Source of the DNA: an uncultured Bacteroides sp.
Lineage (GTDB): Bacteria; Bacteroidota; Bacteroidia; Bacteroidales; Bacteroidaceae
DNA: 64,000 nt
NCBI GenBank assembly: GCA_902388365.1
Contig: CABMPB010000002.1
Coordinates: forward strand, 242,683-306,682
Direction of reading: 5' to 3'
A program made the position numbers and the translations under genes. Position 1 is the stretch's first letter. Every line of letters starts with the position of its first letter. Shown piece after piece: positions 5,913-57,152 of the stretch. The notes below the pieces were generated by a model that ran no database searches, had not been told where the DNA came from, and saw nothing but the letters and a program-made list of their open reading frames with translations.

Positions 5913-8225
5913 TTACAGACGGTTCATTTCCTCATTGGCGGCACCTGTTCCACGGTATTTGCTACGGGTGGAGTTGAATTTGTATCGCACGCTGAGCTGA
6001 ATGTTGCGGGTATCACTGTAATTCCATTTTTCAAACTGCATGCAGTCACCATAGATAATGTAGGAACTGCGTTGTGAGGCAAAAATATCATTTACGTGCA
6101 GGTTCACGTTCAATCGCTCATCCATGAAAGTCTTGTTCAGGCTTATGTTTACGCCTTGGTTGGGCTTCATCAGCATAATGCTGGTGTTTCCTTTGGTGCT
6201 ATAGAACATAGTTAGGTTTCCTGTAAATGTTTTGCTGAAACGGAAATTGTTATCCAGCCTTCCGCTGAAAATGGGTCGGTTGAAGTGTTTCCACTCTCCC
6301 ATCGTTATATTCTTGAAAAATGGTTGTTGCATTTGCAGGCTGAGGGAAGGTTCCCAAATGCCGAACTTGGGAGAAAGTACCAATCCTGTGTTCAATTCTT
6401 CTATCTTGTCGAAGTTCTTGCGGGTGAACAGGGTGATGGCAGGGTTCTTGTCGTATGATTCGGCTACAAACTCTATGGCATCCCGTCGTTGCTGGTAGCT
6501 GACAAACAGTTGTATCCATTGGTAGCTGCCCATTAAGGTGATGTCGTGAATTGTTGCGGGCTTTAGGTTGGGATTTCCTCCTTCATAGGTAAATCGGTCG
6601 TCGTATTGCAGGTTGCTGCTTAGTTCGTTGTAAGACGGTCGTCGGGTTTTGGCAGTGTAACTCAGTGAGAGTTGGGTTTTGCCTACGGGCATGGCCAGGG
6701 AAATATTGGGAAACAAATTGTCATAGTTCCGGCTTTGTTCCTCTACTCGTTTGCCTTTATCCAGATATTCGGAAGTGACGTGTTCGTAACGAAGACCTGC
6801 TGATGCCTGCAATTGACCCAGTGCAATGGCAAATTCGGCAAAGCCTGCCAGTTTTTCTTCTTTTATTTTATTGTCTGTTTCGGGCAGGTAGTTTTGCGGG
6901 TTTTCATAACGGCTGATGCGGCGGGTGTTGCTATATTCGGCTCCTGCTTTCAGTTCTCCTTTTCCTATGGGGTGGGTAAGGACAAGTTTGGCGGCATACA
7001 GGCGATTGTCATTCAGGTTGCTGGTGGTGACGTGGCGGTCTTCGTATTCTTCGCTGGTTTCCAGTACGTTTTGATATTGGCGTGTTTCTCCGCTGTAATA
7101 GTCGGCATTGAAGTCGATACCTAGTTTTCCTACTGTACCCAGGTAGTAAGCGTTGACGCGATGTGAGAAATCGTTATTATTCCAGTCATAGTCATAGTGC
7201 TGGCGGTCGTAGAAGTTTCCGTTGGCGGCAATTTCGTAATCGGAAGTCATGTCCAGATGGGTTTTGGGGCTGCGGCCGAATGTGTAACGCGCTCCCAGCG
7301 AATGGTTGCTGTCAATCATATAATTGAATCCGCCTTCTGTGTTGAGCGAGTAGCTGATGGCGTTCATGTCCATTTCCGAACGATGGTTCCAGGTGGTGTC
7401 CACTTCAATGTAGTGTTTGTCTTTTTGTTCCTGATAGTTGCCCATGCGCGAGAAGTAGAAGTTGGCGAACACGTCCAATCCTCCGTGACGGTAGTTCATG
7501 TTCAGTTGTTCGTAGTGGTTAAAGTTATGATCTTGAATGATTCCGGCATTTACGTTGGTGCTGAATCCTTCTCCTTGTGGTTTCACGGTCTTTATCTTGA
7601 TGACCGATTTTACGGTTACGTCATACTCCGCTCCGGGGTTGGTAATTACTTCTACGCTTTGTATATCTTTGGAACTCAGACGGGCAAGTTCGCTGAGGTC
7701 ACGCAGTTGGCGTCCGTTGAGATAGATGAGTGGCGTACCTTTTCCAAACACGGTGAAGTCGCCATTATCTCCTTGTACAAAAGGGATATGGGTTAATACG
7801 TCATTGGCTGTTCCGGCTGTGCTGAGCAGTGAGTTGGCGACGTTGGTAACGAGGGCATTTCCTTTCATCTTATAGGTGGGGCGGTGGGCGGTGATGACGG
7901 TTTCCTGTAAAGTGACTGCATCGGATTTCAGAATTAAGGTTCCTATATGGCCTGATTGGCAATTCTTATAGGTCGTTTCATATCCCACGGAGGATGCTTT
8001 CAGAATATAGGTTTTACCGTTTACTTTGTCTATGGTAAAATCTCCGTTTGTGTTAGTGACTGTTCCTTGTATGAAAGTGGAGTCGCCGGGATTCAATAAT
8101 ACTACATTGGCATATTCCAACGGAGTATGGGTTTCGTCCGTCAGTTTTCCGGTGATGGTTTGTGCTTGTGTGGCGATTGTGGCTCCTGCAAATAGGGTTG
8201 CAAATAGTAATTTTACTGTTTTCAT
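5913..8225 (-). CDS. TonB-dependent outer-membrane receptor (N-terminal carboxypeptidase-regulatory-like domain, plug and beta-barrel; no STN domain)
   Basis: 770 aa with a signal peptide, a CarbopepD_reg-like Ig domain (GTVTNTNGDFTI), plug motifs (PLIYLNGRQ, ITNPGAEYD) and a C-terminal Tyr/Asn/Gly-rich barrel. It is a paralogue of the receptor at 39556-42132. Confidence 0.8.
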   Translation of the reverse strand: MKTVKLLFATLFAGATIATQAQTITGKLTDETHTPLEYANVVLLNPGDSTFIQGTVTNTNGDFTIDKVNGKTYILKASSVGYETTYKNCQSGHIGTLILKSDAVTLQETVITAHRPTYKMKGNALVTNVANSLLSTAGTANDVLTHIPFVQGDNGDFTVFGKGTPLIYLNGRQLRDLSELARLSSKDIQSVEVITNPGAEYDVTVKSVIKIKTVKPQGEGFSTNVNAGIIQDHNFNHYEQLNMNYRHGGLDVFANFYFSRMGNYQEQKDKHYIEVDTTWNHRSEMDMNAISYSLNTEGGFNYMIDSNHSLGARYTFGRSPKTHLDMTSDYEIAANGNFYDRQHYDYDWNNNDFSHRVNAYYLGTVGKLGIDFNADYYSGETRQYQNVLETSEEYEDRHVTTSNLNDNRLYAAKLVLTHPIGKGELKAGAEYSNTRRISRYENPQNYLPETDNKIKEEKLAGFAEFAIALGQLQASAGLRYEHVTSEYLDKGKRVEEQSRNYDNLFPNISLAMPVGKTQLSLSYTAKTRRPSYNELSSNLQYDDRFTYEGGNPNLKPATIHDITLMGSYQWIQLFVSYQQRRDAIEFVAESYDKNPAITLFTRKNFDKIEELNTGLVLSPKFGIWEPSLSLQMQQPFFKNITMGEWKHFNRPIFSGRLDNNFRFSKTFTGNLTMFYSTKGNTSIMLMKPNQGVNISLNKTFMDERLNVNLHVNDIFASQRSSYIIYGDCMQFEKWNYSDTRNIQLSVRYKFNSTRSKYRGTGAANEEMNRL

Positions 8226-12533: not shown

Positions 12534-15500
12534 ATGTTAAAACGACTGAAATCTGTCAGTATGTTATTATTCCTTGGAAGTTTATTCTCGGGAACAATCT
12601 CTACAATTATGGCTTCCGGAGTAAACTCCTCAGCCATTGTACAACAAACGGAAACATGTAAAGGTGTGGTCAAGGACGCTACAGGCGAGTCCGTTATTGG
12701 TGCTTCAGTAGTTGTAAAAGGTACAACAAACGGAACGATCACCGACTTCGATGGTAATTTTAGCCTTGATGGAGTGAAAAAGGGAGATATGATCATAATC
12801 TCTTATGTGGGCTATCAAACTCAAGAAATTAAATGGAATGGCGGTTCACTGAATGTTATTTTGAAAGAAGATTCAAAAACATTGAGCGAAGTTGTCGTAG
12901 TAGGTTATGGTACACAGAAAAAAGTAAACCTCTCGGGTTCTGTGGCTATGGTGGATAGTAAAGAATTGGAGAATCGTCCTATTCAGAACGTATCCAGCGG
13001 TTTGCAAGGTTTGATGCCGGGTGTTACTATTACAGGAACCAATGGTGCGCCGGGACAGGATGCCGGTAAAATCCGTGTTCGTGGTATCGGTACTTTGAAT
13101 GAGGCCGGTCCGTATATCTTAGTGGATGGAATAGAAACCGGTACTTTGAGTGCTGTCGATCCCAATGATATTGAAAGTATTTCTGTGTTGAAAGATGCCG
13201 CTTCTGCCGCAATCTACGGTTCTAAAGCTGCCAATGGTGTTGTTTTGATTACAACAAAGCGTGGTAAGACTGGAGAAACAAAAGTATCATATAGCGGCTA
13301 TTTGAGTTTCCAGAACGCAACGAATATGATTGAGCGTATGGGTTCTTATGAATATGCTTCCCTGTTGAATAAGGCATTGGAAGCAGAAGGTATGGCAAAA
13401 CGCTTCGATGATACCGAGCTGCAAAAGTTCAAAGCCGGAAATGATCCGCTTTATCCGGACACGGATTGGTATGACCTGGCCTATAAGACCGGTGTTCAGC
13501 ATCGCCATAATATCAATATCAACGGCGGTTCCGAAAATGTGAAGTATATGGCTTCATTGGGTTATCTGAATCAGACCGGTATTTTGCCGAATGCAGGCCG
13601 TGAACAATTCAATGCCCGTACAAATCTGGATATGAAGATCAATGAACGTTTAAGTGCGCGCATGAACTTATCTTATATTAAGAATCAGTATAGCGATGCC
13701 AGTTCTGCCTATGCCGGCGGTAGTTCGGATCAGATTATCCGCCAGTTAAATTTGATTGCTCCCTGGATTGTTGCCCGGTATGACGATGGTACCTGGGGAA
13801 CTATTTCGGATGGTAGCCCCATTGCCTGGTTGGATTCGGGCATGAAGGTAAACCGCGACAATTATAACTTTTCGGGAATGGCTGCCGTGGATTATAAAAT
13901 CATGGATGGTTTGAAACTGACTTTGCAGGGTGCATATGTAAACAATTTGCAGAACTACAGTTATTTCCAGAAATACATCAAGTATAATGAGAATAAAGAA
14001 TCAGACCCTAACCAATTGGATGAACGTTACTATAAATGGGATCGTACAAACTATGACGCGTTGCTGAATTATGATAAGAGTTTTGGCAAGCATAATATCA
14101 AGGGCTTATTGGGTTGGCACACAGAAAAATACAACTATAAGTATCAGAAAGCCGTGCGTAAGAAATTCCCCAATAATGAATTGACGGATATGAATGCCGG
14201 AGATGCTTCTACTCAAAGCAACGAAGGTTATTCGGCAGAACTGGCAATGATTTCATGGTTTGCCCGTGTCAATTATGATTTTGCAGGCAAGTATCTTTTG
14301 GAAGCCAATATCCGTTCGGATGCTTCTTCTCGTTTTGCAGAAGGTCACCGTTGGGGATATTTCCCTTCATTCTCGGGTGCATGGCGCATCAGTGAAGAAG
14401 CATTTATGGAAGGTGTAAGAGATAGCTGGTTGTCAAGCTTGAAGATTCGCGCTTCCTGGGGGCAGTTAGGTAATCAGGATGCATTAAGTGGTACCAATAA
14501 TGACTATTATCCGGCATTGAATACTTATAATCTGGATTCTAAATATGCATTCGGAGGTTCTTTGAATTCCGGTTATTATCAGCGGAAATACCGTTTGGAA
14601 ACCATCTCATGGGAAAAGGCATCTACTTGGGGTATCGGTGTTGACTTTACTTTATTCAACAAGTTGAATGGTTCTATTGATTATTATAATCGTAAGACTA
14701 CCGACATCATTATGGATGTAACGGTTCCTGAAGAATTTGCATTGGATGCTTACAAGGACAATGTAGGCTCTATGAGAAATAGTGGTGTAGAAATAAACTT
14801 GAGCTACAATACCCAAATAGGTCAGGTTGACTTTGGAATCGCAGGTAATTTCTCTTATAATAAGAACAAGATCCTTGATTTGGGAGGCGGTGATCCTGAT
14901 AAATACCTGGATGCTTCGGGTGGTTACAATCAGCGTAATAAAGTAGGTGAAGCTATGAACTCATACTTTATTTATAGAGCAGACGGTTTCTTCAATTCTC
15001 AGGAAGAAGCAGATGCTTATACCGAAAAATATGGTAATCCTTTCGGCAAGAAGTTTAAAGCCGGTGACTTGCGTTATGTAGATACAAACAAAGATGGTAA
15101 GCTGACGGCTGAAGACCGTGAATATTGTGGTAGCTCGGATCCTAAGATTACTTATGGTTTCAATATTAATGCAGGCTGGAAAGGTTTTGACCTGTCATTG
15201 ATGTTTAATGGTGCTGCCGGTGTAAAGAGATTGTTTGACGGATATGAAGTTTATGGTAACTTCTCGGGTGATGCTGCCCATCCGTCTACTATATGGAGAG
15301 ATGCTTGGACACCCGAGAATCATAATGCTTCCATGCCGCGTATTTTCTATGATACAAATTCTCCCAGTAGCAGCCGTTCCGTGCAATCTGATTTCTGGTT
15401 GCAGAATACAAGCTACTTGCGCCTCAAGAACCTGCAGTTAGGATATACATTACCAAAGAAGTGGTTGAATGCCGTCGGTGTTGATAATATCCGCATTTAC

Positions 15501-19384: not shown

Positions 19385-22219
19385 TTATAATACGATGTTT
19401 ACAATCTTCTTCGGAACGATGATTACTTTCTTCGGAGTCTTGCCTTCAATCCATTTCTGTGCCTGTTCGTCGGCCATAACGGTATTTTGGATGGTGTCGT
19501 TATCGGCATCGGCGGCAAACTCCATAGTGAAACGTGCCTTACCATTGAAAGAGATGGTATAATTTACGGTATCTTCTTTCAGGTAATCTTCATTGAATGC
19601 AGGCCACTGGGCATCGCATACGCTGGTAGTATTGCCCAATGCTTCCCAAAGTTCTTCGCTGAAATGAGGAGCGAAGGGAGCCAACAGGATGATGAGATTG
19701 CTCAATACTTCCTTGTTTTTGCACTTCAATGAGGTCAGTTCGTTTACGCAAATCATAAATGCACTGATAGAAGTGTTGTAAGAGAAAGTCTCAATATCTC
19801 CGGTTACTTTCTTTATCAGTTTATGGATGGCTTTCAATTCTTCTTTAGTCGGAGCAGCTTCCACCGGAAGGAATTCGTCCGTGCGGCTGTAGAACAGGTT
19901 CCAAAGTTTCTTCAAGAAACGGTGAACACCATCTATACCGTTGGTATCCCAAGGCTTGGACTGTTCTACCGGACCGAGGAACATTTCGTACATGCGCAAT
20001 GTATCCGCACCATATCTTTCGACAATCATATCCGGATTAACCACGTTGAACATCGATTTACTCATCTTTTCTACCGCCCATCCGCAGATGTATTTGCCGT
20101 CTTCCAGGATAAATTCCGCATTGTTGTATTCCGGACGCCAGTTCTTGAAGGCTTCAATATCCAGAATATCATTGGATACGATGTTCACATCCACGTGCAG
20201 CGGAGTGGTTTCGTATTGGTCTTTCAGGTTCAGGGAAACAAATGTATTGGTATCCTTGATGCGATATACAAAGTTGCTTCGGCCTTGAATCATACCTTGG
20301 TTCACTAACTTCTGGAACGGTTCTTCCTTGATGCTTACACCCAGATCGTGCAGGAACTTGTTCCAGAAACGAGAGTAAATCAAGTGTCCCGTAGCGTGTT
20401 CCGTACCTCCTACATAGAGGTCTACATTCTGCCAGTATTGGTCTACCTTTTCTGAAACCAAGGCCTGATTGTTGTGCGGATCCATATAGCGCAGGTAGTA
20501 GGCTGATGAACCGGCAAATCCCGGCATGGTATTCAGTTCCAGCGGGAATACTTTTACGTTATCAATCAATGAGTTATCTACCACTTCGCCTGTCTCTGTA
20601 TTCCAAGCCCACTTGGTAGCGTGCCCCAATGGGGGTTCGCCTGTTTCGGTAGGCAGGAACTTGGCAACTTCGGGCAATTCCAGCGGCAGTTTGCTTTCGT
20701 CAATCATGTAGGGCATGCCGTCTTTGTAGTACACCGGGAACGGTTCGCCCCAGTAACGCTGGCGTGAGAAGATAGCATCGCGAAGGCGGTAGTTTACTTT
20801 CACGCGTCCCAGGTTGTGGGCTTTTACATATTCTTTGGTGGCTGCGATGGCTTCTTTGATGGTAAGCCCGTTCAATGAAAGATCGCAGTAAGGAGTCACA
20901 CCTTGGCGCGGCGAGTTGCAAACAATACCTTCTTTGGCATCGAAACTTTCTTCGCTTACATCGCAACCTTCTACCAGGGGAACGATAGGCAGGTTGAAGT
21001 GTTTTGCAAAAGCATAGTCGCGGCTATCGTGGGCAGGAACAGCCATGATGGCGCCTGTGCCGTAACCTGCCAATACATAATCACTGATCCATACGGGAAC
21101 TGCATCTCCTGTAAACGGGTTCACAGCATACGAACCGCTGAATACACCGGTTACACGGCGGTCGGCAATGCGTTCACGCTCTGTACGTTTCTTGGTGCGA
21201 TCCAGGTAAGCCTCTACTTCAGCTTTCTGTTCGGGAGTAGTAAGTTGGGAAACCAATTCACTTTCGGGAGCCAATACCATGAAGGTTACGCCAAACATGG
21301 TGTCTGCACGGGTGGTGAAGATGGTAAATTCAATATCGCTGTCTTTTACTTTGAATTGTATTTCTGCACCTTCTGAGCGACCTATCCAGTTGCGCTGGGT
21401 TTCTTTCAGAGAGTCTGTCCATTCCACGTTGTCCAATCCATCAAGCAAACGCTGGGCATAAGCGGATACACGCAGGCACCATTGGCGCATCTTCTTCTGA
21501 ACTACGGGGAAACCGCCGCGTTCCGAAACTCCGTCTACCACTTCATCATTGGCAAGAACGGTTCCCAGTTGCGGACACCAGTTTACCATCGTTTCGCCCA
21601 AGTAAGCGATGCGGTAGTTCATCAGGATTTCCTGCTGTTCCTTTTCGCTTTTGGCATTCCATTCTTCGGCGGTGAAGCTGATTTCTTCGCTGCAAGCGGC
21701 GTTTAGTCCTTTGTTGCCATATTGTGGGAATGCTTCAATCAGTTCGCTGATGGGGCGTGCCTGCTGTTCGTCATTGCAATAATAGCTGTTGAACATTTTT
21801 TGGAAAGCCCATTGTGTCCAGTGGTAATAGTTCGGTTCGCAAGTGCGTATCTCACGGTTCCAATCAAAAGAGAAACCGATCTTGTCCAACTGTTCACGAT
21901 AGCGGTTGATATTGTTTACAGTGGTGATGGCAGGATGTTGTCCGGTTTGGATGGCGTATTGTTCTGCGGGAAGTCCGTAGGCATCATAGCCCATGGGGTT
22001 CAGCACATTAAAGCCTTGCAGGCGTTTGTAACGGGCGTAGATATCGCTGGCAATATATCCCAGCGGATGTCCTACGTGCAAACCTGCTCCTGATGGATAG
22101 GGGAACATATTCAATACGTAGAATTTCTTCTTGCTTTCGTCTTCGGTCACCTGATAGGTGTGATTGTCCACCCATCTTTGCTGCCATTTCTTTTCAATCT
22201 CTCTGAAATTGTATTCCAT
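19385..22219 (-). CDS. leuS: Leucine--tRNA ligase
   Basis: 944 aa with an HIGH motif ([16 protein letters not shown]), KMSKS (KMSKSMFN) and LeuS-specific editing-domain and C-terminal regions. Confidence 0.97.
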
Positions 22220-22469
22220 GATCTATATATAATTTATTTATTAATTGCTTTGTATTTAAGAGTTTGCAAAGATAATGAAAGTCGGGGGAATAATAGATGG
22301 AAAGGGGAAAGAAAATGAGTTTCAGCATTTTGGGGGAGTAGAAAAAGGGTAGTAAAGTGGAAGAAATCCTTTAAAAACTCCTTGTTCTTTTTCAAAAACA
22401 CTTCATTCTTTTCGGAAAACTTCTAATTCTTTTTTAGAAAGGCGGTTATCTTTTCAAGGGGGTGCTGAG

Positions 22470-22650
22470 GCGGTGGAATGCTTCCGGTTTCACACCGCGA
22501 AACACCTCGTAACACACCGCGATATTTTATTTTCGCGGTGTGTTACGGAGCTTTTCTCGGTGTCTTATTAACCGTGAAAAACAATGGCGGTTGTTTTCAA
22601 AAACAATGGTCATTGTTTTTGCATTGAATCATTTGGGGCTGGGAATGAAT
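22470..22650. repeat. ~170-bp multi-hairpin intergenic repeat element, copy 1
   Basis: It contains the hairpins GGTTTCACACCGCGAAACACC, CGTAACACACCGCGA..TCGCGGTGTGTTACG and the perfect palindrome AAAACAATGGCCATTGTTTT (variant AATGGTCATT). Its reverse complement aligns at about 80% identity with 53747-53925. Confidence 0.6.
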
Positions 22651-22659
22651 AGCGTTGCC

Positions 22660-22754
22660 GTCCACCGTAGGGGCAGATTGAATCTGCCCGATAACATCCC
22701 AATGGTATATCTGTGGATGCATTCGGGCGGATTCAATCCGCCCCTACGGTGGAC
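22660..22754. repeat. GTAGGGGC double-hairpin palindromic element, copy at the tricorn protease 3' end
   Basis: GTCCACCGTAGGGGCAGATTGAATCTGCCC...GGGCGGATTCAATCCGCCCCTACGGTGGAC. Each arm is itself a hairpin. It lies 40 bp downstream of the protease stop on the minus strand. Confidence 0.6.
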
Positions 22755-22796
22755 GGCTTACCTTAAACAATTAATTCAAAACCATTTCGACATGCT

Positions 22797-25700
22797 CTAT
22801 TCCACTCCTAAATCTTTATAAGTTCTGGGAGCCGGAACCGGCGGCAACGGCTTGCGGTCTTTCAACTCTTGAAGAATGACCTCAATTGCCTTATTCAACT
22901 GCTGATCCTCTCCCATTTGTTCTTTGATAGGATCATTATCAATCAGAATATCAGGATCTACACCATGATTCTCTACAATCCATTGTCCGGTTTTTGCATC
23001 ATAATTGGTAAAGAACGGAACGCGTACATCCGTGCCATCCATATAAGGCAGTGGCCCGCTGATGCCAATAATACCGCCCCAGGTGCGAGTACCGATTACT
23101 TTACCTATCTTGGTTGCCTTGAAACTCCACGGGAACAGGTCGCCATCTGATGCAGAATACTTGTTTATCAACAGGACTTTAGGACCTACCAGAGTTGCAT
23201 CCGGAATTGTGTTTACCTTAGTAGAAGTGCGGCTCATCGTCAGCCGGTAGGGGTCACGAAGCAAGCGTTCAATAATCATTGGCGATACGTTGCCGCCACC
23301 ATTGGCACGGTCGTCAATAATCAGTGCTTCCTTGTCCAGTTGCGGATAGAAGTAGCGTGCAAATTCATTCAGCCCTTCCGGTCCCATATCGGGAATGTAG
23401 ACGTAGCCTACCCGGCCATTAGTTGCTTTTTCTACTTTCTTTATATTGTCTTGCACCCAGTTGTAATGATATAATGGAGATTCATCATCTATCGGACTTA
23501 TCACCACTTTGCGTGCACCATCGGCTGACGCTGTGCTGTTTATGCTTAATTCTGTCAGTACATTTGCTTTGCCTACCAGCAAGCTATAAATATTGTCAAC
23601 AGTAGCTGTTGAAACACCGTCGATGGCTGTAATGTAATCTCCTTCTTTAACCTCAATACCCGGTTCTGTCAGTGGAGAACGCAATGACTGGCTGTAAACA
23701 GCTCCCGGCAGAATCTTATCAATGCGGTAGAATCCGTTCTTGCCGCGGCTCAACTCTGCTCCCAATAATCCCATCGGGATGCGTTCAGGGCCTTTTATCT
23801 CGCCCGGATTTACATAGGCATGGCCACAAGCCAGTTCGGCAATCATTTCACCTATAATATAGTTCAAGTCCAAACGGGTCTTTGCATAAGGCAGCAGGAC
23901 TGCATATTTCTCTTTTATTGCTTTCCAGTCTGCACCATGCATATTTTCCAAATAGAATCCGTCACGGAAAGCACGCCAGGTTTCATCAAATATCTGTGCC
24001 CATTCTTGCGGATAATCTATCGGTGCCACCATGTCATCCAAATCAACAGGATCCTCCATGGATGCCTTGCTGCATGGAAAATCGCAGATGTATAGATTAC
24101 CTCTTTTGTGGAATAATGCTTTCTTATTGTTGCTCGTTACGCTCATAGAAGCACCGGCGGCTACTGTTTCTTCTTTCTGTTTCTCCAGGTCGAAAACTTT
24201 GGTATCTCTGCCACTTGAATACCATACTTTCTTTCCATCTGAATAGAAGTTACCATAGTTTCCGGCGTTCAATGGCAATTTAATCAATCTGCCCGGTAAG
24301 CCTGCAGGGTCTATTTTAACACTGCTTCCCGTTGCTTCTGATACTTTCTTATCTTTTGCTGCATTTTCTGTGCCGGCTGTTTCATCTGTGGGCAACAGGG
24401 GCGATGGGGTGTCATTGGCAAGCATGGCCATGTAAACGCCTCCCATATGGTTATAGGCATGATTCCATTCTGTTTGGCTATAAATAGGATTGAAATCTCT
24501 TTCAGAACTGAAAATGAGATATTTGCCATCACTGCTAAATTCGGGTGAAGAAGAACTGTACCATTTTTCGGTTACCGGATACTCCTTGCCTGTGCTGAGG
24601 TTGTACACATAGACCACACTCATATTATTTTTGCCGGATTTGGTATAGGTAATCCATTGGCTATCCGGTGAATAGCTTACTGAGTAAAATTCTCCTTCCG
24701 GGTTTTGCATCAAGGTACGTTTGGCTTTTGAAGGAATGTCTACTTCCACAATGCGGTTTTTGCGGTCGGTATAGAGTACTTTTTTACTATCCGGACTCCA
24801 CATCAGTTGGCGGATGTAAGTATCATTGTTCTTAGTGAGTTGGATAGGGTCTCCACCTTCGGCAGATTGCAACCAGATTTCGGTTTCGCCGGTACGGTCG
24901 CTGATGTAGGCAATGTATTTTCCATCCGGGCTCCAATCGGCTCCGCGCTCATTAGCTCCCGGGGTGCGGGTGATGTTACGGGTTACTCCCTTGTCAGCCG
25001 GGACATCGAATACTTCTCCGCGAGCAGTCACTGCCAAGCGGTGCCCGTCCGGTGAAAGGCTGGCGGCTGTGAGGTTATCGGCTACTTTTTTCATTTCCTT
25101 GCGGGCATAGATATTATCTGATGCCAGAGTAATGGAAATCTTTTCTGATTTACGTGTTTTAGGATCTAACTTGTACAGATAGCCCCCGTGTTCATAGACG
25201 ATGACTTGTCCGTTGCTACTGGGGAATTTTACATCATAATCCGTATAGTTGGTAACCTTTTCGGTTTGTTTGGTCTTGGTGTTATAGACAAAGATATTCA
25301 TGGTGCGGTCTCGGTCGGAAATGAAATAGATCTCCTCTCCTATCCACATCGGAATAATATCTTGTGCTATATTGTTGGTAATATTCTCTATTTTCTTGGC
25401 GGCCGGATCATAAATCCATATATCGTCTGCCATACCTCCGCGATAATATTTCCAGTTGCGGAATTCACGCATCACACGGTTGTAAGCAAGCTTTTTACCA
25501 TCGGGCGAGTAGCTGCAAAAACCTCCTTCGGGCAATGGAATAGCCTGTGACATACCGCCTTCTTTAGAGATTGTCCAGAGTTTGCCGGTAAAGCTGTCGC
25601 CAATTCGGTTGCGGTAGACAATGTTTTTGCCATCCGGGCTCCACGTCATCACAATGTTGTTGGGACCCATGCGGTCTCCCAAGTCATCGCGGCTGTTGGT

Positions 25701-26021
25701 CGAGGTATAAGTAAGGCGTTGGGGTTCGCCTCCGTTGGCAGGCATCAGATACACTTCGGTATTACCGTCATATTGTCCGGTGAAAGCAATAGACTTTCCA
25801 TCGGGTGAGAAACGGGCGAACATTTCATAGCCGATATGCGAAGTCAGTCTTTGAGCTTCGCCGCCACCTAGAGGTGCTTTGTACAAATCTCCGGCATAGG
25901 AGAAAACTACGTCCGAACCGTTGGTTGCAGGAAAGCGGAGTAATCTAGCTTCATCGGCATGTCCGGTGAAAGCTGTCCCGGCAAGAAGCAGGGAGAATAA
26001 TAGCTTTTTATTCATACGCAA
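22797..26021 (-). CDS. Tricorn-protease-like S41 family peptidase (tandem PD40 beta-propellers, PDZ and S41 peptidase domain)
   Basis: 1074 aa with a signal peptide, repeated PD40-like SPDG(K/S) blades and a C-terminal S41 region (GRVGYVYIPDMG..., DDRANGGGN, GTRTWGG). Confidence 0.9.
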   Translation of the reverse strand: MRMNKKLLFSLLLAGTAFTGHADEARLLRFPATNGSDVVFSYAGDLYKAPLGGGEAQRLTSHIGYEMFARFSPDGKSIAFTGQYDGNTEVYLMPANGGEPQRLTYTSTNSRDDLGDRMGPNNIVMTWSPDGKNIVYRNRIGDSFTGKLWTISKEGGMSQAIPLPEGGFCSYSPDGKKLAYNRVMREFRNWKYYRGGMADDIWIYDPAAKKIENITNNIAQDIIPMWIGEEIYFISDRDRTMNIFVYNTKTKQTEKVTNYTDYDVKFPSSNGQVIVYEHGGYLYKLDPKTRKSEKISITLASDNIYARKEMKKVADNLTAASLSPDGHRLAVTARGEVFDVPADKGVTRNITRTPGANERGADWSPDGKYIAYISDRTGETEIWLQSAEGGDPIQLTKNNDTYIRQLMWSPDSKKVLYTDRKNRIVEVDIPSKAKRTLMQNPEGEFYSVSYSPDSQWITYTKSGKNNMSVVYVYNLSTGKEYPVTEKWYSSSSPEFSSDGKYLIFSSERDFNPIYSQTEWNHAYNHMGGVYMAMLANDTPSPLLPTDETAGTENAAKDKKVSEATGSSVKIDPAGLPGRLIKLPLNAGNYGNFYSDGKKVWYSSGRDTKVFDLEKQKEETVAAGASMSVTSNNKKALFHKRGNLYICDFPCSKASMEDPVDLDDMVAPIDYPQEWAQIFDETWRAFRDGFYLENMHGADWKAIKEKYAVLLPYAKTRLDLNYIIGEMIAELACGHAYVNPGEIKGPERIPMGLLGAELSRGKNGFYRIDKILPGAVYSQSLRSPLTEPGIEVKEGDYITAIDGVSTATVDNIYSLLVGKANVLTELSINSTASADGARKVVISPIDDESPLYHYNWVQDNIKKVEKATNGRVGYVYIPDMGPEGLNEFARYFYPQLDKEALIIDDRANGGGNVSPMIIERLLRDPYRLTMSRTSTKVNTIPDATLVGPKVLLINKYSASDGDLFPWSFKATKIGKVIGTRTWGGIIGISGPLPYMDGTDVRVPFFTNYDAKTGQWIVENHGVDPDILIDNDPIKEQMGEDQQLNKAIEVILQELKDRKPLPPVPAPRTYKDLGVE

Positions 26022-27965: not shown

Positions 27966-30900
27966 ATGAGAAAAAACTTTTCCAAAAATCACAGGGGGCA
28001 TTGGATTCCTCTTGTTTTGGTGGCTTCATTTCTGTTATGGGGAAATGTGGCTATGGCTGCGCTGTCTATTCAGGAGGCAAAATTTTCTATGCGGCAAAAT
28101 TCTATCTCTTTAAACCAGGTTTTTCATGAAATTGAGAAACAGACGGGCTACTCCTTTTTAGTACGTAATAATGATATCAATATCAACGAAAAGGTTTCTA
28201 TTGATGTCCGGAATAAAAGTGTGGAGGAGGTATTGGAAATCTTATTTGCAGGAAAGAATATCCGTTACAAGGTAGAGGGAGAACGTATTTCTGTTTATAA
28301 GCCTCAGCAAGCAAGACAAAGCACTATTACAGGATTGGTTCTGGATGCTGCCAAAGAACCGATTATTGGTGCATCTGTTGTAGTAATAGGATCTACTAAC
28401 GGATGTATTACAGACTTTGATGGAAAATTCTCTTTAGAGGTTTCCGAACTTCCGGTGAAACTGCAAATCAGCTATATCGGTTACAAGTCTCAAGAAGTAA
28501 CGGTAAATGATACGAAGACCATTCAGGTGGTGATGCGTGAGGATACCGAAACATTGGACGAAGTAGTGGTAGTAGGTTATGGTTCACAGAAAAAGGCAAA
28601 CTTGACCGGTGCTGTCGCTTCCGTAAAAATGGACGAAGTAATTGGTAACCGTCCCTTATCACAAGCTGCCGATGCATTGCAGGGTACAGTTCCCGGCTTG
28701 TTTGTTTCAAGTGACGGTAATGCTCCCGGTAAGAGTAAATCATTTCAAATTCGTGGTGCCTATTCTGTAGGTATCAAGAATGATGACGGTTCTTATGGTA
28801 GTGCCATCAAGCCTTTGATTTTGATTGACAATGTGGAAGGAGACCTGGATATGGTTAATCCTGAGGATATTGAAACGGTTACAGTGCTGAAAGATGCCGC
28901 TTCGGCTGCCATTTATGGTGCCCGTGCTGCCGGTGGTGTAATTTTGGTTACTACCAAACGTCCGAAAGGAGAAACTTCTTTCCAACTGAATTATAATAAT
29001 AACTTTGCCTTTGCAACCGCCATGAATTTGCCAGAACAAGCACCGTTGATGGAATATTTGCAGGCCTATTCTGATGCTGCCGGAGATCAATTCTGGACAA
29101 TGGGTTCACCCAGTGTAAGCAAATGGATGGGATATTTGGAGCAATATCGTAATAATCCGTCTTCTATTCCTACTGTCGGCGATGGTATCTTTAAAGATAC
29201 GGATGGGGCTGTTTATTATATGAATGAAAAGGACTTGGTGAAGAACATGCTTGAGACCAGTTTCCAGCATACTCATAATATATCAATGACAGGTAGTACT
29301 GATAAGCTCCGCTATCGTCTTTCTGCCGGATTTATTGATAATGACGGTGTGCTGATTACTGACAAGGATAAATACAGACGAATGAATGTCAGTGGATTTA
29401 TATCCGCCAATGTTACAAAATGGTTTACTCAGGAAGCTACTTTCAGCTATGCACATAGTAAAAGAATGGAGCCAAAGTCTGCTTTGGGCGCTGTTTACAG
29501 TACCCGTCTTGCTTCTTTCTATCCGGAAGGCAATATGCCGGAAGGTATTTCTGCTGCAGGCGATGGGTTGCCTTTCTTTACTCCGTCCAATCAGATACGT
29601 TGGTCCAATCCGGCTAAAACTTTGTATGATAATCCGCGTATTTTCTTGAAGTCTATATTGAAGCCTTTGAAAGGCCTTGAAATAGCATTCGAATATACAT
29701 TCGACAAGAATATATATGATTATAACTGGTACACAGGAAGTGTAGCATATACAACTGTTCAAGGTGGTAAAGATACTACTCCTACAAGTGACTATTTGCA
29801 GAAAACAAAAAGATATACTGATTATAATTCCATTAACTTATATGGTACCTATGATTTTGCATTAGGAGATCATAAGTTTAAAGTAATGGCAGGTTTCAAC
29901 CAGGAGTCAAGCTACCGGGAAACAATGGAAGCTTATTCTTATGGACAGGCTGTAATTGAGGTTCCCTCATTAGGTTCAGGTACTTCTACTTTGAAAGCCA
30001 CTGATAAATACAATGAATTTTCTGTTCGCGGCGGATTCTTCCGTGTGAATTACAACTATCAGGATAAATATTTGCTGGAAGTAAACGGACGCTATGACGG
30101 TTCTTCTAAGTTTCCTAAAGAATCACGTTACGGTTTCTTCCCCTCTGTTTCGGCCGGTTGGAACATTGCACAGGAAAAATTCATGGAAAGTACTCAGAAT
30201 TGGTTAGGTTCTTTGAAGCTACGCGCTTCTTATGGTATGATTGGTAACCAGAACGTGCCTGCTTATTCGTTTATTCCGACTATGACGGTGAATAATAAAT
30301 ACAATGGTTGGATATCCAATGGTAATTATGTAACCGCTATTACTTCTATTCCTTCATTGGTAAGTCGCAACTTTACTTGGGAAAAGGTAGGAACATTAGA
30401 CATCGGTATTGATTTCTCTATGTTCAGTAATCGCTTCACAGGTACTTTTGACTGGTATCAGCGTAATACGAACGGCATGCTTGCTCCGGGTGTACAATTG
30501 CCTGCTGTGGTGGGTGCGGATGCTCCTTATCAGAATACGGCAGATATGCGTACACGTGGTTGGGAACTGAGCTTTAATTGGCGCGATCAGATTGGAAAGG
30601 TTGGTTATCGCGTTGGTTTCAACCTGTCTGATAGTAAGTCAAAGATTGTGAAGTATGATAGTAATTCATCTTATTTATTGAGCAGTGAGCGTACCAATGC
30701 ACAGACTGGTGGAAAATATACATTCTGGGAGTTTTATAAAGGTAAGGAATTAGGCGAAATCTGGGGATATGAAACAGATGGTTATTATACCGTAGACGAT
30801 TTTGTCGATACTTCTTCATGGAAATTAAAGGATGGTGTTCCAAGCATAGATGGCTATAATCCTCGTCCGGGTGATGTGAAGTTCAAGAACTTAATGGATG

Positions 30901-45019: not shown

Positions 45020-45190
45020 GATGCGGCAAATTACGCAATAAAGTTTCAAAAAAACAAGGATACTGGGAACGATTGCAGATTTTGAGAACGTTCCCGCAAA
45101 CGTTCTCAAGAGATTTCAATGCTGTTGGGGAGAGTTCTTTTTGATGGGTGGCCTATCTTCGTTGCATAAATCTAATAAACAAGTAATATC

Positions 45191-47873: not shown

Positions 47874-48068
47874 GGCTAGAGTATTTAAGGTATAATTGAA
47901 ACAAAAATACACCTTTCGTTTTTCATCTGCAAATAAAATGGGAACGTTTGCAGATTTTGGGAACGATTGCGGGAACGTTTGCAGGCGAATCCCTTTAAAT
48001 TTCTTCGTTTTTCTTTTTTCCGCCTTCTATATTTGTGGCATAAATCAACAATTTAAAACCATAAAATC

Positions 48069-49527: not shown

Positions 49528-49669
49528 GTGTGTCAAAACTAGAATTTACTATCATTTTGTTGTAGGGGCGGGGTTTGCCCGCCCGAAAATAGTTCGCTTT
49601 GTGTATTCGGGCAGGCAAACCCTGCCCCTACCAGTGAACATTTGATAGTTGCTCCAGAGTTTTGACACA
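49528..49669. repeat. GTAGGGGCGG double-hairpin palindromic element, full copy
   Basis: Outer inverted repeat GTGTCAAAACT...AGTTTTGACAC enclosing the hairpins GTAGGGGCGGGGTTTGCCCGCCC and GGGCAGGCAAACCCTGCCCCTAC. It lies 14 bp after the stop of the upstream reductase and overlaps the 5' end of the MFS track ORF. Confidence 0.65.
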
Positions 49670-53369: not shown

Positions 53370-53746
53370 ATTCTTTCCTTTTATATAATGAGTGCTCAAA
53401 GTTAGGAATTTATTTCTTAATTCGGGCTATAAAAGGACAATAAAAAAGGAAGAGAACTTCACAGTTGTCTTCCCCTATTTTTTTAACCTAAACCTTAACT
53501 ATGAAAAAATCTAATGTTTTTCAGAAGCAAATATGCGAATTAATATGATACGTTGGTAACGTAAACGGTTTTTTTGTTCACGGTTTATAATTATTTAACT
53601 CTTTGCGCTGTTTATGGGGCATTTATAGCATCATATTACCTGTTGTGGTCTAAATTCCTTCAAAAGCTTCATGGGCTTATAACATTTTGTTTATGAGTGT
53701 CTTATCATGAAGAAATATTTTGTGATTCCTTCATAAATGATCAATA

Positions 53747-53925
53747 ATGATTCAAAGCAAAAACACCCGCCATTGTTTTTGGAAACACCCGCCGTTGTTT
53801 GGGAAAACAATGGCCATTGTTTTTCGCGGTCCATAAGACACCGGGAAGTGCTTCGTAACACACCGGGAAACTACAGTATCGCGGTGTGTTACGGAGTGTT
53901 TCCTGGTGTGAAACCGAAGGTATCT
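53747..53925. repeat. ~170-bp multi-hairpin intergenic repeat element, copy 2 (inverted relative to copy 1)
   Basis: AAACAATGGCCATTGTTTTT palindrome units, CGTAACACACCGGG..CGCGGTGTGTTACGG hairpin and GGTGTGAAACC. It is about 80% identical to the reverse complement of 22470-22650. Confidence 0.6.
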
Positions 53926-53957
53926 CACCGAGGTACAGACCGGACAAAACACCTGCA

Positions 53958-54030
53958 TCTTACTAACGATGAGGCCGAAAGATTACTAATGACGAGGGCG
54001 AGTCATTACTAATGATACGGCTTACCCATT
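53958..54030 (+). repeat. About 3.3 tandem copies of a 23-bp direct repeat (CTTACTAACGATGAGGCCGAAAG / ATTACTAATGACGAGGGCGAGTC / ATTACTAATGATACGGCTTACCC / ATTACTGA...)
   Basis: Read directly from the sequence. It lies 75-150 bp upstream of the AraC-family gene start. Confidence 0.55.
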
Positions 54031-54104
54031 ACTGATCCATTTATGAAGGAATTGGAATATATTTGTTCATGATAACTATCTTATAATCAAATTGTTATTG
54101 GCAA

Positions 54105-55049
54105 ATGACGGATTTGAAGGAAAATACATGGACTGAAGATATTCTTGTGCACCCATTATTGACTATCTTTGCAAAAAGTATGATTATGAATTCCATCCCC
54201 CGGTATAAATTTTATAAAACGAAGTATGGTGAGGAGCTTTTGATAGATGTAGTAACCTTGGACAGCATTCGCCCTTATATCAATAAGACTCCGGTGCACA
54301 CCTTGTCTTATTTTGATATCACCTTTATAACCGGTGGCTCCGGACATTTATCCATTGCCGATGAACAGTTTTCCCTTTGCCAAGGGGATATTATATTTTC
54401 CAGACCCGGAGAAATACGGGCGTGGAATGCAGAGAACCTTCCGCAAGGCTATGCGCTTATCTTTGAAGAAGAATTCCTGCTCTCATTCTTTAACGACCCT
54501 TCTTTTATACAAAACCTTTCTTACTTTAACAGAGATAGAGCTTCTGCCAGACTGAACATTACAAATATATATTCCCGAATTGAAAGTCTGATCCGGAATA
54601 TTATATCCGAAATAAACAACGAGCACTCCAGGGACAAACATATTTTGCGTGCCTTGCTGTATGAGATGCTGATGCTTCTCAACCGCGAATATTCAAAAAG
54701 CTACAACGCCATCGAAGGAAAATCTTCAAATAGATATATAGATCATTTTATCAAATTAGTCGATCGGGATTTCAGAACCCATCATGACACTGCATACTAT
54801 GCCAATGAACTATGTATCACCCCCAACTATCTGAATGAACTAGTCCAGAAAACAATGAATACCAGCCCTAAAAGCTATATTCAGAATAGAATAATCCAAG
54901 AAGCAAAAACATTGCTGGCTTATACCAGCCTGTCCGTATCCGAGGTGGCAGACAGACTGAGTTTTGAAAACCCTTCATACTTTATACGGTTATTCCGCCG
55001 GCAGATCCGGTTGACCCCTTTGCAATATCGGCATAGCATCATTCGTTGA
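54105..55049 (+). CDS. AraC-family transcriptional regulator
   Basis: 314 aa with an N-terminal cupin-like sensing domain and C-terminal dual HTH AraC signatures (YYANELCITPNYLNELVQK; SVSEVADRLSFENPSYFIRLFRR). Confidence 0.9.
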   Translation: MTDLKENTWTEDILVHPLLTIFAKSMIMNSIPRYKFYKTKYGEELLIDVVTLDSIRPYINKTPVHTLSYFDITFITGGSGHLSIADEQFSLCQGDIIFSRPGEIRAWNAENLPQGYALIFEEEFLLSFFNDPSFIQNLSYFNRDRASARLNITNIYSRIESLIRNIISEINNEHSRDKHILRALLYEMLMLLNREYSKSYNAIEGKSSNRYIDHFIKLVDRDFRTHHDTAYYANELCITPNYLNELVQKTMNTSPKSYIQNRIIQEAKTLLAYTSLSVSEVADRLSFENPSYFIRLFRRQIRLTPLQYRHSIIR

Positions 55050-55649: not shown

Positions 55650-57026
55650 ATGAAAGAAACAACAGGAGCAGACTTTAAATCTGCAACTGAAACCGAAAAC
55701 AAGAAATTGTTTATCGAAACCTACGGCTGCCAGATGAATGTGGCTGATAGTGAAGTAATTGCATCTATTATGCAGATGGCAGGCTACCGGGTGTGCGAAA
55801 CGCTGGACGAAGCGGATGCCGTGTTTATGAACACTTGTTCCATCCGTGACAATGCGGAGCAGAAGATTCTGAACCGATTGGAGTTTTTCCATTCCATGAA
55901 GAAGAACAAGCGCAGGGACTTGATAGTGGGCGTACTGGGCTGTATGGCGGAACGCGTGAAGGATGATTTGATAGAGAATCATCATGTAGACCTTGTGGTG
56001 GGGCCGGACGCTTACCTCACTTTACCCGATTTGGTTGCTTCGGTAGAGGCAGGAGAGAAGGCTATCAATGTGGAGCTTTCCACCACCGAGACTTATCGTG
56101 AGGTGATTCCGTCGCGCATTTGTGGCAACCACATTTCCGGCTTTGTCAGCATCATGCGTGGCTGCAACAATTTCTGCCACTATTGCATCGTGCCTTATAC
56201 TCGCGGACGGGAGCGTAGCCGTGATGTGGAGAGCATCCTGAATGAGGTGCGCGACCTGGCAGGCAGGGGCTACAAGGAAGTGACCTTGCTGGGACAGAAT
56301 GTAAACTCCTATCGTTTTGAAAAGGAGGGAGAAGTGATAACTTTCCCTATGTTGCTGCGCACAGTGGCGGAAGCGGTGCCGGGCATGCGTGTCCGTTTTA
56401 CAACTTCGCACCCCAAGGATATGAGCGACGAGACGTTGCAAGTGATTGCGGAAGTGCCCAATGTGTGCAAGCATATTCACCTACCGGTGCAGAGTGGCAG
56501 TTCACGAATCTTGAAACTGATGAACCGCAAATATACCCGCGAATGGTATCTGGAGAGGGTAGCGGCCATCCGCCGGATTATTCCGGATTGCGGGTTGAGT
56601 ACCGATATATTTTCGGGCTATCATTCGGAGACGGAAGAGGATCATCAGGAATCTTTGTCCCTGATGCGTGAATGTGGGTATGATTCCGCCTTTATGTTCA
56701 AGTACTCGGAACGTCCCGGGACGTATGCTTCCAAGCATTTGCCGGATGATGTGCCCGAAGAAATTAAGATCCGCCGTTTGAATGAGATTATTGAATTGCA
56801 GAACCAACTGTCTGCCGAAAGCAATGCCAAGGATGTGGGAAAAACATTCGAGGTAATGGTAGAAGGGGTTTCCAAGCGTTCAAAAGAACAGTTATTCGGA
56901 CGTACACAGCAAAATAAGGTGGTAGTCTTTGATAGAGGCAATCATCGCATTGGCGATTTTGTGAATGTGCGTATCACCGAGGCCAGTTCAGCCACGCTGA
57001 AAGGTGAGGAAGTAATTGCACCGTAG
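55650..57026 (+). CDS. miaB: tRNA-2-methylthio-N6-dimethylallyladenosine synthase (radical SAM methylthiotransferase)
   Basis: 458 aa with an MTTase N-domain (LFIETYGCQMNVADSE), a radical SAM CxxxCxxC (MRGCNNFCHYC) and a TRAM domain. Confidence 0.93.
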   Translation: MKETTGADFKSATETENKKLFIETYGCQMNVADSEVIASIMQMAGYRVCETLDEADAVFMNTCSIRDNAEQKILNRLEFFHSMKKNKRRDLIVGVLGCMAERVKDDLIENHHVDLVVGPDAYLTLPDLVASVEAGEKAINVELSTTETYREVIPSRICGNHISGFVSIMRGCNNFCHYCIVPYTRGRERSRDVESILNEVRDLAGRGYKEVTLLGQNVNSYRFEKEGEVITFPMLLRTVAEAVPGMRVRFTTSHPKDMSDETLQVIAEVPNVCKHIHLPVQSGSSRILKLMNRKYTREWYLERVAAIRRIIPDCGLSTDIFSGYHSETEEDHQESLSLMRECGYDSAFMFKYSERPGTYASKHLPDDVPEEIKIRRLNEIIELQNQLSAESNAKDVGKTFEVMVEGVSKRSKEQLFGRTQQNKVVVFDRGNHRIGDFVNVRITEASSATLKGEEVIAP

Positions 57027-57103
57027 GGGCGGATTGAATCCGCCCGAATACACCCCAAATACCCCCTTCGGATTGTTGTCGGGCAGATTCAATCTGCCCC
57101 TAC
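57023..57103. repeat. GTAGGGGCGG double-hairpin palindromic element, 81-nt copy overlapping the miaB stop codon
   Basis: GTAGGGGCGGATTGAATCCGCCC...GGGCAGATTCAATCTGCCCCTAC. The 7-bp terminal stem GTAGGGG/CCCCTAC encloses two stem-loops with 7-nt loops. The TAG stop of miaB is the first three bases of the element. Confidence 0.65.
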
Positions 57104-57152
57104 AGTAGATGAAAGCGTTATTTGTTCCTTAGTTTCGCAATTATGGAATTTA

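Follow-up and report, generated by a model that had tools for sequence, protein, structure and literature searches.

The two hairpin-rich repeats that lie in inverted orientation in the window, the whole 64-kb stretch of DNA that was analysed, are best explained as paralogous copies of a non-coding, non-autonomous, modular dispersed repeat. On balance, they probably belong to a low-copy, lineage-restricted family of intergenic elements of the MITE/BOX/BrickBuilt kind, whose mode of spread and function we infer. The copies are referred to as W1 (copy 1, + strand) and W2 (copy 2, - strand). The repeat of about 170 bp that was noticed first is, as the family alignment shows, the central part of a longer unit with a size of about 380 bp. 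Further members of the family were found in metagenome contigs, and related genomes that keep the same gene order and promoters lack the element.

Two inverted copies in the window

Repeat search, MAFFT alignment, and blastn all agree that two inverted copies are present where the first-pass annotation had placed them, and the identity of roughly 80% that it gave was measured as 80-82%. W1 (22471-22633, +) and W2 (53746-53930, -) are about 82% identical. The repeat search of the window returned inverted arms of 148 nt with 80% complementarity (22471-22618 / 53783-53930). MAFFT, applied to 22440-22660 (+) and 53730-53960 (-), gave a mean column identity of 82% over about 185 aligned bases, and blastn gave 82% over 139 nt (E = 1e-34), with no third copy found in the 64-kb window. 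The alignment contains a 22-bp gap, because W2 has three 22-bp units and W1 has two.

The motifs that had been named from the letters are real, as their counts lie far above chance expectation. In a pattern search, AAACAATGGNNNNTGTTTT was matched 6 times (0.02 expected) and GTAACACACCG was matched exactly 4 times (0.53 expected), with all four of the latter inside W1 and W2. A perfect 20-bp palindrome, AAAACAATGGCCATTGTTTT, had been attributed to both copies. It is present in W2 (53804-53823), but its counterpart in W1 is AAAACAATGGTCATTGTTTT, a 9+9 palindrome with a 2-nt centre. Both copies fold far better than shuffled sequence.

The source of the window is a Bacteroides/Phocaeicola-like gut bacterium, with a LeuS 88% identical to that of Bacteroides sp. 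ET225. ORF and gene context bears out that both copies are intergenic. W1 has the leuS promoter on one side and, on the other, the stop of a gene for a tricorn-type S41 protease (22797-26021, -). W2 lies between a divergent ORF with an acetyl-CoA hydrolase gene on one side and an araC-family gene on the other. GC skew is uniform across the window, yet W1 and W2 lie on opposite replication strands. An IS200/IS605-type (PATE) element with replication-strand bias is disfavoured by this uniform skew and by the opposite orientations of the two copies.

The long araC ORF (54105-55049) probably starts too early, because a perfect Bacteroides -7 box, TATCTTTG, lies inside it at 54164-54171; translation is more likely to begin at ATG 54183 or 54189. 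In the database, a protein that is 98% identical to the araC product (P0121) is annotated with 314 aa, as long as the long ORF.

Architecture of the unit

The full unit consists of a 23-bp minisatellite, a conserved spacer, a 72-bp palindrome, a 22-bp palindromic minisatellite, and a palindromic tail, in this order. The coordinates of the modules in the window are given in Table 1. Four phased 12-bp ACACCG boxes of the (C/G)GTAACACACCG type, of which two are direct and two inverted, make up the 72-bp imperfect palindrome; on each arm, 21-22 bp separate one box from the next. In W1 and W2, the two inner boxes give a perfect stem of 14 bp. The centre can be perfect over up to 40 bp, and at one of the metagenomic loci (L050) it is a 40-bp perfect palindrome with no loop. 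The conserved core, which comprises the palindrome, the 22-bp units, and a terminal block, is described here in the orientation that has GGTTTCACACC first; this sequence is invariant save for one base in L050. The 22-bp units number one to three per copy, each is itself a palindrome (AAACAATGG/CCATTGTTT), and a short terminal block follows them. For the W1 palindrome, the predicted DNA fold has an energy of -25.6 kcal/mol (z = -7.7).

Table 1. Features of W1 and W2, of the neighbouring leuS gene, and of the 23-bp arrays at two further loci (contig coordinates for the last two)
Feature	Positions	Strand	Basis or detail
W1, three 21-bp A-tract tandem repeats	22373-22434	+	TRF period 21, 3.0 copies
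W1, conserved core start CGGTGGAATGCTTCCGGTTTC, leading into box a	22471-22491	+	Family alignment begins here
W1, 72-bp imperfect palindrome, four ACACCGnGAAA-type boxes (a>, b>, <c, <d)	22492-22563	+	Inverted-repeat arms 31 nt, 84%
W1, central perfect hairpin arms	22508-22521 and 22534-22547		CGTAACACACCGCG and CGCGGTGTGTTACG
W1, exact GTAACACACCG	22509-22519 and 22536-22546	+ and -	
W1, 22-bp palindromic minisatellite, 2 units (AAAAACAATGGnnnTTGTTTTC)	22577-22619	+	TRF period 22, 2.0 copies; pattern matches
W1, end of homology with W2 (TGCATTGAATCATT)	22620-22633	+	blastn limit 22598-22633 / 53781-53746; alignment
W2, tail module, ATGAAGGAAT / TTCATGATAA palindromic boxes	53655-53749	-	Left arm of 96-bp inverted repeat flanking W2
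W2, 22-bp palindromic minisatellite, 3 units including AAAACAATGGCCATTGTTTT	53760-53824	-	TRF period 22, 3.0 copies; pattern matches
W2, 72-bp imperfect palindrome, boxes a-d	53838-53909	-	Inverted-repeat arms 35 nt, 80%; folds
W2, central hairpin arms	53854-53866 and 53881-53893		GTAACACACCG at 53855-53865 and 53882-53892
W2, conserved spacer (GATGCAGGTGTTTTGTCCGGTCTGTAYCTCGGTGAGAT...)	53910-53959	-	Family alignment
W2, 23-bp minisatellite, TCATTAGTAAT core, about 3-4 units	53960-54036	-	TRF period 23
W2 only, second, inverted copy of the tail module	54027-54122	+	blastn 54027-54122 vs 53749-53655
leuS	19385-22219	-	-7 box TATCTTTG at 22267-22274
L048, 23-bp array	7126-7286		
L050, 23-bp array	6609-6683		

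The modules are not shared equally by all members. The W2 spacer is nearly unchanged at two metagenomic loci, L048 and L050, and is shared only weakly by W1. The W2 tail module is common to L050 and, more weakly, to L048. W1 is without a tail module and has a REP pair in its place. The first-pass annotation had placed one copy next to 23-bp iterons; the adjacency stands for W2, but the family alignment makes these iterons part of the repeat family itself. In W1 the corresponding place is occupied by the 21-bp A-tract repeats, which are unrelated in sequence. The element that had been noted beside the other copy was also found, next to W1, as a pair of GTAGGGGC REP-like palindromes at 22657-22757.

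W2 has one feature of its own. Together with the second, inverted tail copy it forms a 468-bp foldback (53655-54122), with 96-bp arms of 78% identity around 277 bp. A -7-like box, TATATTTG, at 54058-54065 in the inverted tail copy faces the araC gene. No inverted tail partner was found at the other loci (W1, L048, and L050). The foldback may represent the element in its intact, TIR-bearing form; alternatively, it may have arisen by local duplication-inversion.

Further loci and strain variation

A pattern for the central hairpin (GTAACACACCG-N8-24-CGGTGTGTTAC) was scanned in 185,579 species genomes and in metagenome contigs. The scan of the species genomes returned 5 chance hairpins, all from unrelated phyla (Pirellula, Nocardia, Nitrosopumilus), and no Bacteroidales copy. 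The metagenome scan recovered an orthologue of W1 (L049) and one of W2 (L055), from a strain whose identity to the window is about 96-98%, and two new paralogous loci. The first (L048/L052/L056) is bordered on one side by a 223-aa ORF, itself downstream of frdAB, and on the other by an araC-type gene, at its 3' end. The second (L050) lies between a GH43 gene and cysS, upstream of cysS, and the CysS encoded there is 94% identical to a Phocaeicola sp. CysS. All four loci were found together in one JGI sample (Ga0192242). The family has at least four loci per genome. Three further metagenome matches were set aside: L054 is a high-GC chance hairpin once read, and L051 and L053 have no similarity to the element outside the hairpin pattern.

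The copies descend from a common ancestor. W2 is 81% identical to L050 over 362 bp (53655-54015), and W2 and L048 have 283 bp in common at 87-89%. Across a 130-nt core, the paralogues are 81-93% identical, with W1 the most diverged member of the family. Orthologous copies in other strains are 96-99.6% identical, which is about the same as the surrounding DNA.

Repeat number changes from strain to strain. W1 has two 22-bp units and its orthologue L049 has one, and W2 has three. The 23-bp units range from about 3 to 7 in the family, with about 4 in L050, 7 in L048, and 6 in L052 and L056. Among the four paralogues, substitutions are concentrated in the loops and spacers, whereas the boxes are spared (run test p = 0.034). 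With respect to at least one flanking gene, each of the four copies has the same orientation. This shared orientation is only suggestive, as it would arise by chance about 1 time in 8. Together, the sparing of the boxes and the common orientation are a hint of a function beyond selfish spread.

Gain of the element in the present lineage

In two related genomes, whose LeuS is 90-95% identical and whose GH43 and cysS DNA is 86-89% identical, the order of the tricorn-leuS and GH43-cysS genes is conserved, as are the leuS and cysS core promoters, and the element is absent from both. Beyond the core promoter, their spacers are unrelated to the element-bearing spacers and cannot be aligned with them. 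AraC orthologues elsewhere (71-76% identity) were also found with no element. Since the relatives keep gene order and promoters without the element, and the AraC orthologues likewise lack it, the comparison indicates that the element was gained in the present lineage, in the fast-evolving promoter-distal part of the spacers. The exact ends of the element and any target duplications are unreadable, because the empty sites cannot be aligned.

The family was found in the present gut Bacteroides/Phocaeicola lineage only. BLAST of the 221-bp core and of the 491-bp W2 unit gave no match in plasmids and phages. Viral contigs were searched with six patterns (box a, the 22-bp repeats, the 23-bp repeats, the tail, the spacer, and a loosened central hairpin), and the matches, checked with an nhmmer family profile, were chance matches only.

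In related genomes (L008-L012, about 2705-2760), a canonical GC-rich hairpin (ATGATGCAGCCGAAAGA...TCTTTCGGCTGCATCAT) comes after the tricorn gene. This hairpin is missing in the window species, where the REP pair and the element fill its place (22640-22796).

Gene order and the proposed 31-kb inversion

A further proposal was that the two copies act as recombination sites that invert the intervening 31 kb, which carries a sulfatase PUL, bla, and a sugar-acid locus, or that the 96-bp inverted repeats of W2 form a local switch. We regard both as highly improbable. The copies are inverted and 31 kb apart, but their identity is only 80-82%, and the available assemblies do not support an inversion: the 24 contigs with an identical LeuS all have the same neighbour genes, leuS adjoins the tricorn gene in both of the places shown, and the contigs of the orthologous loci, L049 and L055, are collinear with the window through W1 and W2. 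No recombinant junction was found among the metagenome matches to the central hairpin. The geometry of W2, with 96-bp inverted repeats around 277 bp, is that of an inverton; however, there is no -7 promoter box to flip within these repeats, and a scan of the neighbouring ORFs against Pfam found no adjacent recombinase gene.

It was also considered whether W1 marks the edge of a 31-kb island. This is ruled out, because relatives without the element have the same tricorn-leuS junction, which thus predates the element; W1 is not the edge of a mobile 31-kb block.

Coding potential and RNA structure

The element is non-coding. A small protein was ruled out, since frames are open on both strands, codon periodicity is absent, and the 22/23-bp indels shift the frame. 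No 3-nt periodicity is seen in the variable columns (15/10/8). What looks like a 9-codon mini-ORF in the tail (MKE....S*) results from an ATGAAG/CTTCAT inverted repeat.

If the family were one of structured non-coding RNAs, whether sRNAs or UTR elements that act in cis, its long hairpins would do the work, and they might serve as RNase III targets, 3' stabilisers, or attenuators. This candidate of the first-pass annotation is not supported, and we consider it clearly unlikely. The folds are much more stable than those of shuffled sequences (z = -8.5, -4.5, -7.4, and -6.8), but the better-folding strand is opposite in W1 and W2, and RNAalifold gave a covariation term of +2.27, with 2 of 48 pairs compensatory. 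A perfect palindrome with no loop can form the centre of the hairpin, as in the 40-bp example of L050, which looks like a palindrome at the DNA level, and the counts of the 22- and 23-bp units vary. The common orientation of the four copies relative to flanking genes, kept even though W1 and W2 are on opposite replication strands, would suit a transcribed element, as would the fact that at W1, L050, and L048 the element is read into by an upstream gene on the tail side. However, no sigma-ABfr -7 box (TAnnTTTG) occurs inside the four paralogues on either strand, and the copies have no consistent or recurring terminator pattern. Rfam returned 0 matches at gathering thresholds for the whole window. 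At permissive E-values, the region 22200-22800 gave generic hairpin matches, of which the best relevant one, rteR, scored 22.1 bits against the 72 required.

The element is probably not an independent sRNA gene. sRNAs of the FopS/GibS type are characterised by a promoter, a terminator, and a 5' seed that is single-stranded (PMC11697453), and FopS has one terminator hairpin, is conserved across Bacteroidaceae, and has been deposited in Rfam (PMC11697453). The present family resembles FopS and GibS (PMC11697453, PMC7366714) in being multicopy and intergenic and in occurring in Bacteroidaceae. In contrast to them, it is without its own sigma-ABfr promoter, 5' seed, terminator, or Rfam match.

Boxes and minisatellites as possible protein-binding sites

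The phasing of the modules at about 22 bp fits a protein-binding array, and it also fits minisatellites generated by slippage. In a cis-acting platform, the boxes and the 22/23-bp minisatellites, with periods of about two helical turns, would load a multimeric protein on one face of the helix. The bound protein could be a regulator, a nucleoid protein, or a recombinase/transposase, and it would modulate or insulate the leuS, cysS, and araC promoters. We consider this rather doubtful. Neighbouring boxes are 21-22 bp apart, the palindromes are perfect and loop-less (as in the 40-bp centre of L050), and the boxes are invariant where loops and spacers vary. On the other hand, an identity of 81-93% over hundreds of bases, spacers included, argues for common descent by duplication and not for independently evolved operators. 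Three of the four copies share one orientation and are placed 100-250 bp upstream of a conserved promoter, but related genomes use these promoters with no element present. None of the copies has a linked candidate for the binding protein, and the araC genes beside W2 and L048 are unrelated to each other. If the bound protein were a transposase, a platform would be compatible with the dispersed-repeat explanation. A more specific version, in which a lineage-specific nucleoprotein platform, possibly bound by a domesticated recombinase/transposase, would set the expression or insulation of the leuS and cysS housekeeping promoters and of an araC regulator and in which minisatellite length would adjust this effect between strains, is distinctly improbable.

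Two other candidate sites were rejected. An AraC operator is ruled out, as the araC genes at the two loci are unrelated and AraC orthologues elsewhere do not have the element. A likeness of GGTTTCAC...GAAACAC to parS was ruled out on inspection, because the half-sites are not arranged as in TGTTTCACGTGAAACA.

Elsewhere in the window, a direct repeat (75%; 45055-45113 / 47930-47988) with GGGAACG(T/A)TTGCAGATTTTG(A/G)GAACG motifs is present in two intergenic regions of the sugar-acid locus. It looks like a set of paired operator sites for a local regulator.

A probable MITE-like dispersed repeat and comparison with known families

Among the candidates raised at first, a MITE-like family is the best supported, with the reservation that a strict definition of a MITE does not cover these elements. 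They are 160-470 bp long and non-coding, they occupy four paralogous loci in unrelated surroundings, all of them intergenic, and they are lineage-specific. Features typical of MITEs, namely terminal inverted repeats at every copy, convincing target-site duplications, and a parent IS, were not found. Terminal inverted repeats are present at W2 only (53655-53749 / 54027-54122, 78%), with none at W1, L048, or L050. The sole candidate for a target-site duplication is a TA on both outer sides of W2, which is not convincing. A parent transposase or IS with matching ends was not found in plasmid, phage, and viral collections. Four copies are very few for a MITE, and this counts against the assignment.

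In the preferred explanation, a dispersed repeat, the copies would owe their spread to transposition in trans or to illegitimate recombination, the routes that are also assumed for elements of the MITE/BOX/BrickBuilt type. W1 would be a diverged or truncated version, in which the tail has been replaced by the REP pair. The present effect of the element would be passive or at most modulatory, for example through hairpins that serve as barriers, stabilisers, or protein landing pads. Such hairpins could form in DNA or in read-through RNA, upstream of leuS, cysS, and araC. The 31 kb between W1 and W2 would not be inverted by the copies.

The closest described analogue is BrickBuilt/MITEPgRS (MITE464) of Porphyromonas gingivalis, which is species-restricted and always intergenic (Klein et al. 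2015, PMC4596501). In these elements, a leader and a tail segment enclose a minisatellite of 23 or 41 nt; many partial forms occur, and the genes listed as their neighbours include leuS, argS, araC, and an S41 peptidase (PMC4596501). Both families are found in Bacteroidales, and both are intergenic and modular, with partial forms and a variable repeat number. The 23-nt variable tandem array with flanking modules is matched here by arrays of about 3-7 units, and this likeness is only architectural. The two families have no sequence similarity, there are about 4 copies here versus about 19, and no matching IS was found for the present family. A further difference is that the present family has two different minisatellites flanking a long palindrome. 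The IS5-type TIR GAGACCTTTGCA / TGCAAAGGTCTC has 5 matches in the window (at most 2 mismatches) versus 5.2 expected, with none in or beside the elements.

BOX elements of Streptococcus pneumoniae (boxA-(boxB)n-boxC), ERIC, and Correia-type elements are short, non-coding, modular intergenic repeats with strong predicted structure. They vary in the number of internal modules, have no transposase of their own, and are present in tens to hundreds of copies. Each Correia or ERIC element is one long imperfect palindrome that carries TIRs. These are looser analogues of the present family. They come from other phyla and have no sequence in common with it, and TIR-like arms occur here at one locus only.

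REP and BIME-REPIN sequences are also comparable, since they are dispersed extragenic palindromes between convergent or co-directional genes, with fast turnover between strains. However, REPs are single hairpins of 20-40 bp that start with GTAG and occur in inverted pairs, whereas the element studied here is multi-modular and unrelated in sequence. This description fits the neighbouring GTAGGGGC pair and not the element itself.

The GTAGGGGC sequences form a separate REP-like family in the window, with 7 exact GTAGGGGC matches, mostly in inverted pairs (1295-1327, the pair beside W1, 49555-49631, and 57019-57128). The inner sequence of the pair beside W1 differs in strain L049, which indicates that these REP-like elements turn over quickly.

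Significance and a side observation

Dispersed intergenic repeats are poorly catalogued in gut Bacteroidaceae, and the present family is a compact example, combining two minisatellites with a long palindrome. It sits upstream of essential aminoacyl-tRNA synthetase genes. A practical application is as a strain-typing (VNTR) marker. For assemblers and gene callers, the family is a warning, because its several open frames attract spurious ORFs. It may also be used as a test case for the origin of such elements and their influence on neighbouring promoters. No major concept is changed unless a binding protein or a transcript is found.

A further pair of repeats in the window has an ordinary explanation. 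The direct repeats at 12867-13262 and 28539-28961 (74-79%) lie inside two genes for SusC-like TonB-dependent receptors and reflect coding paralogy between two PULs.
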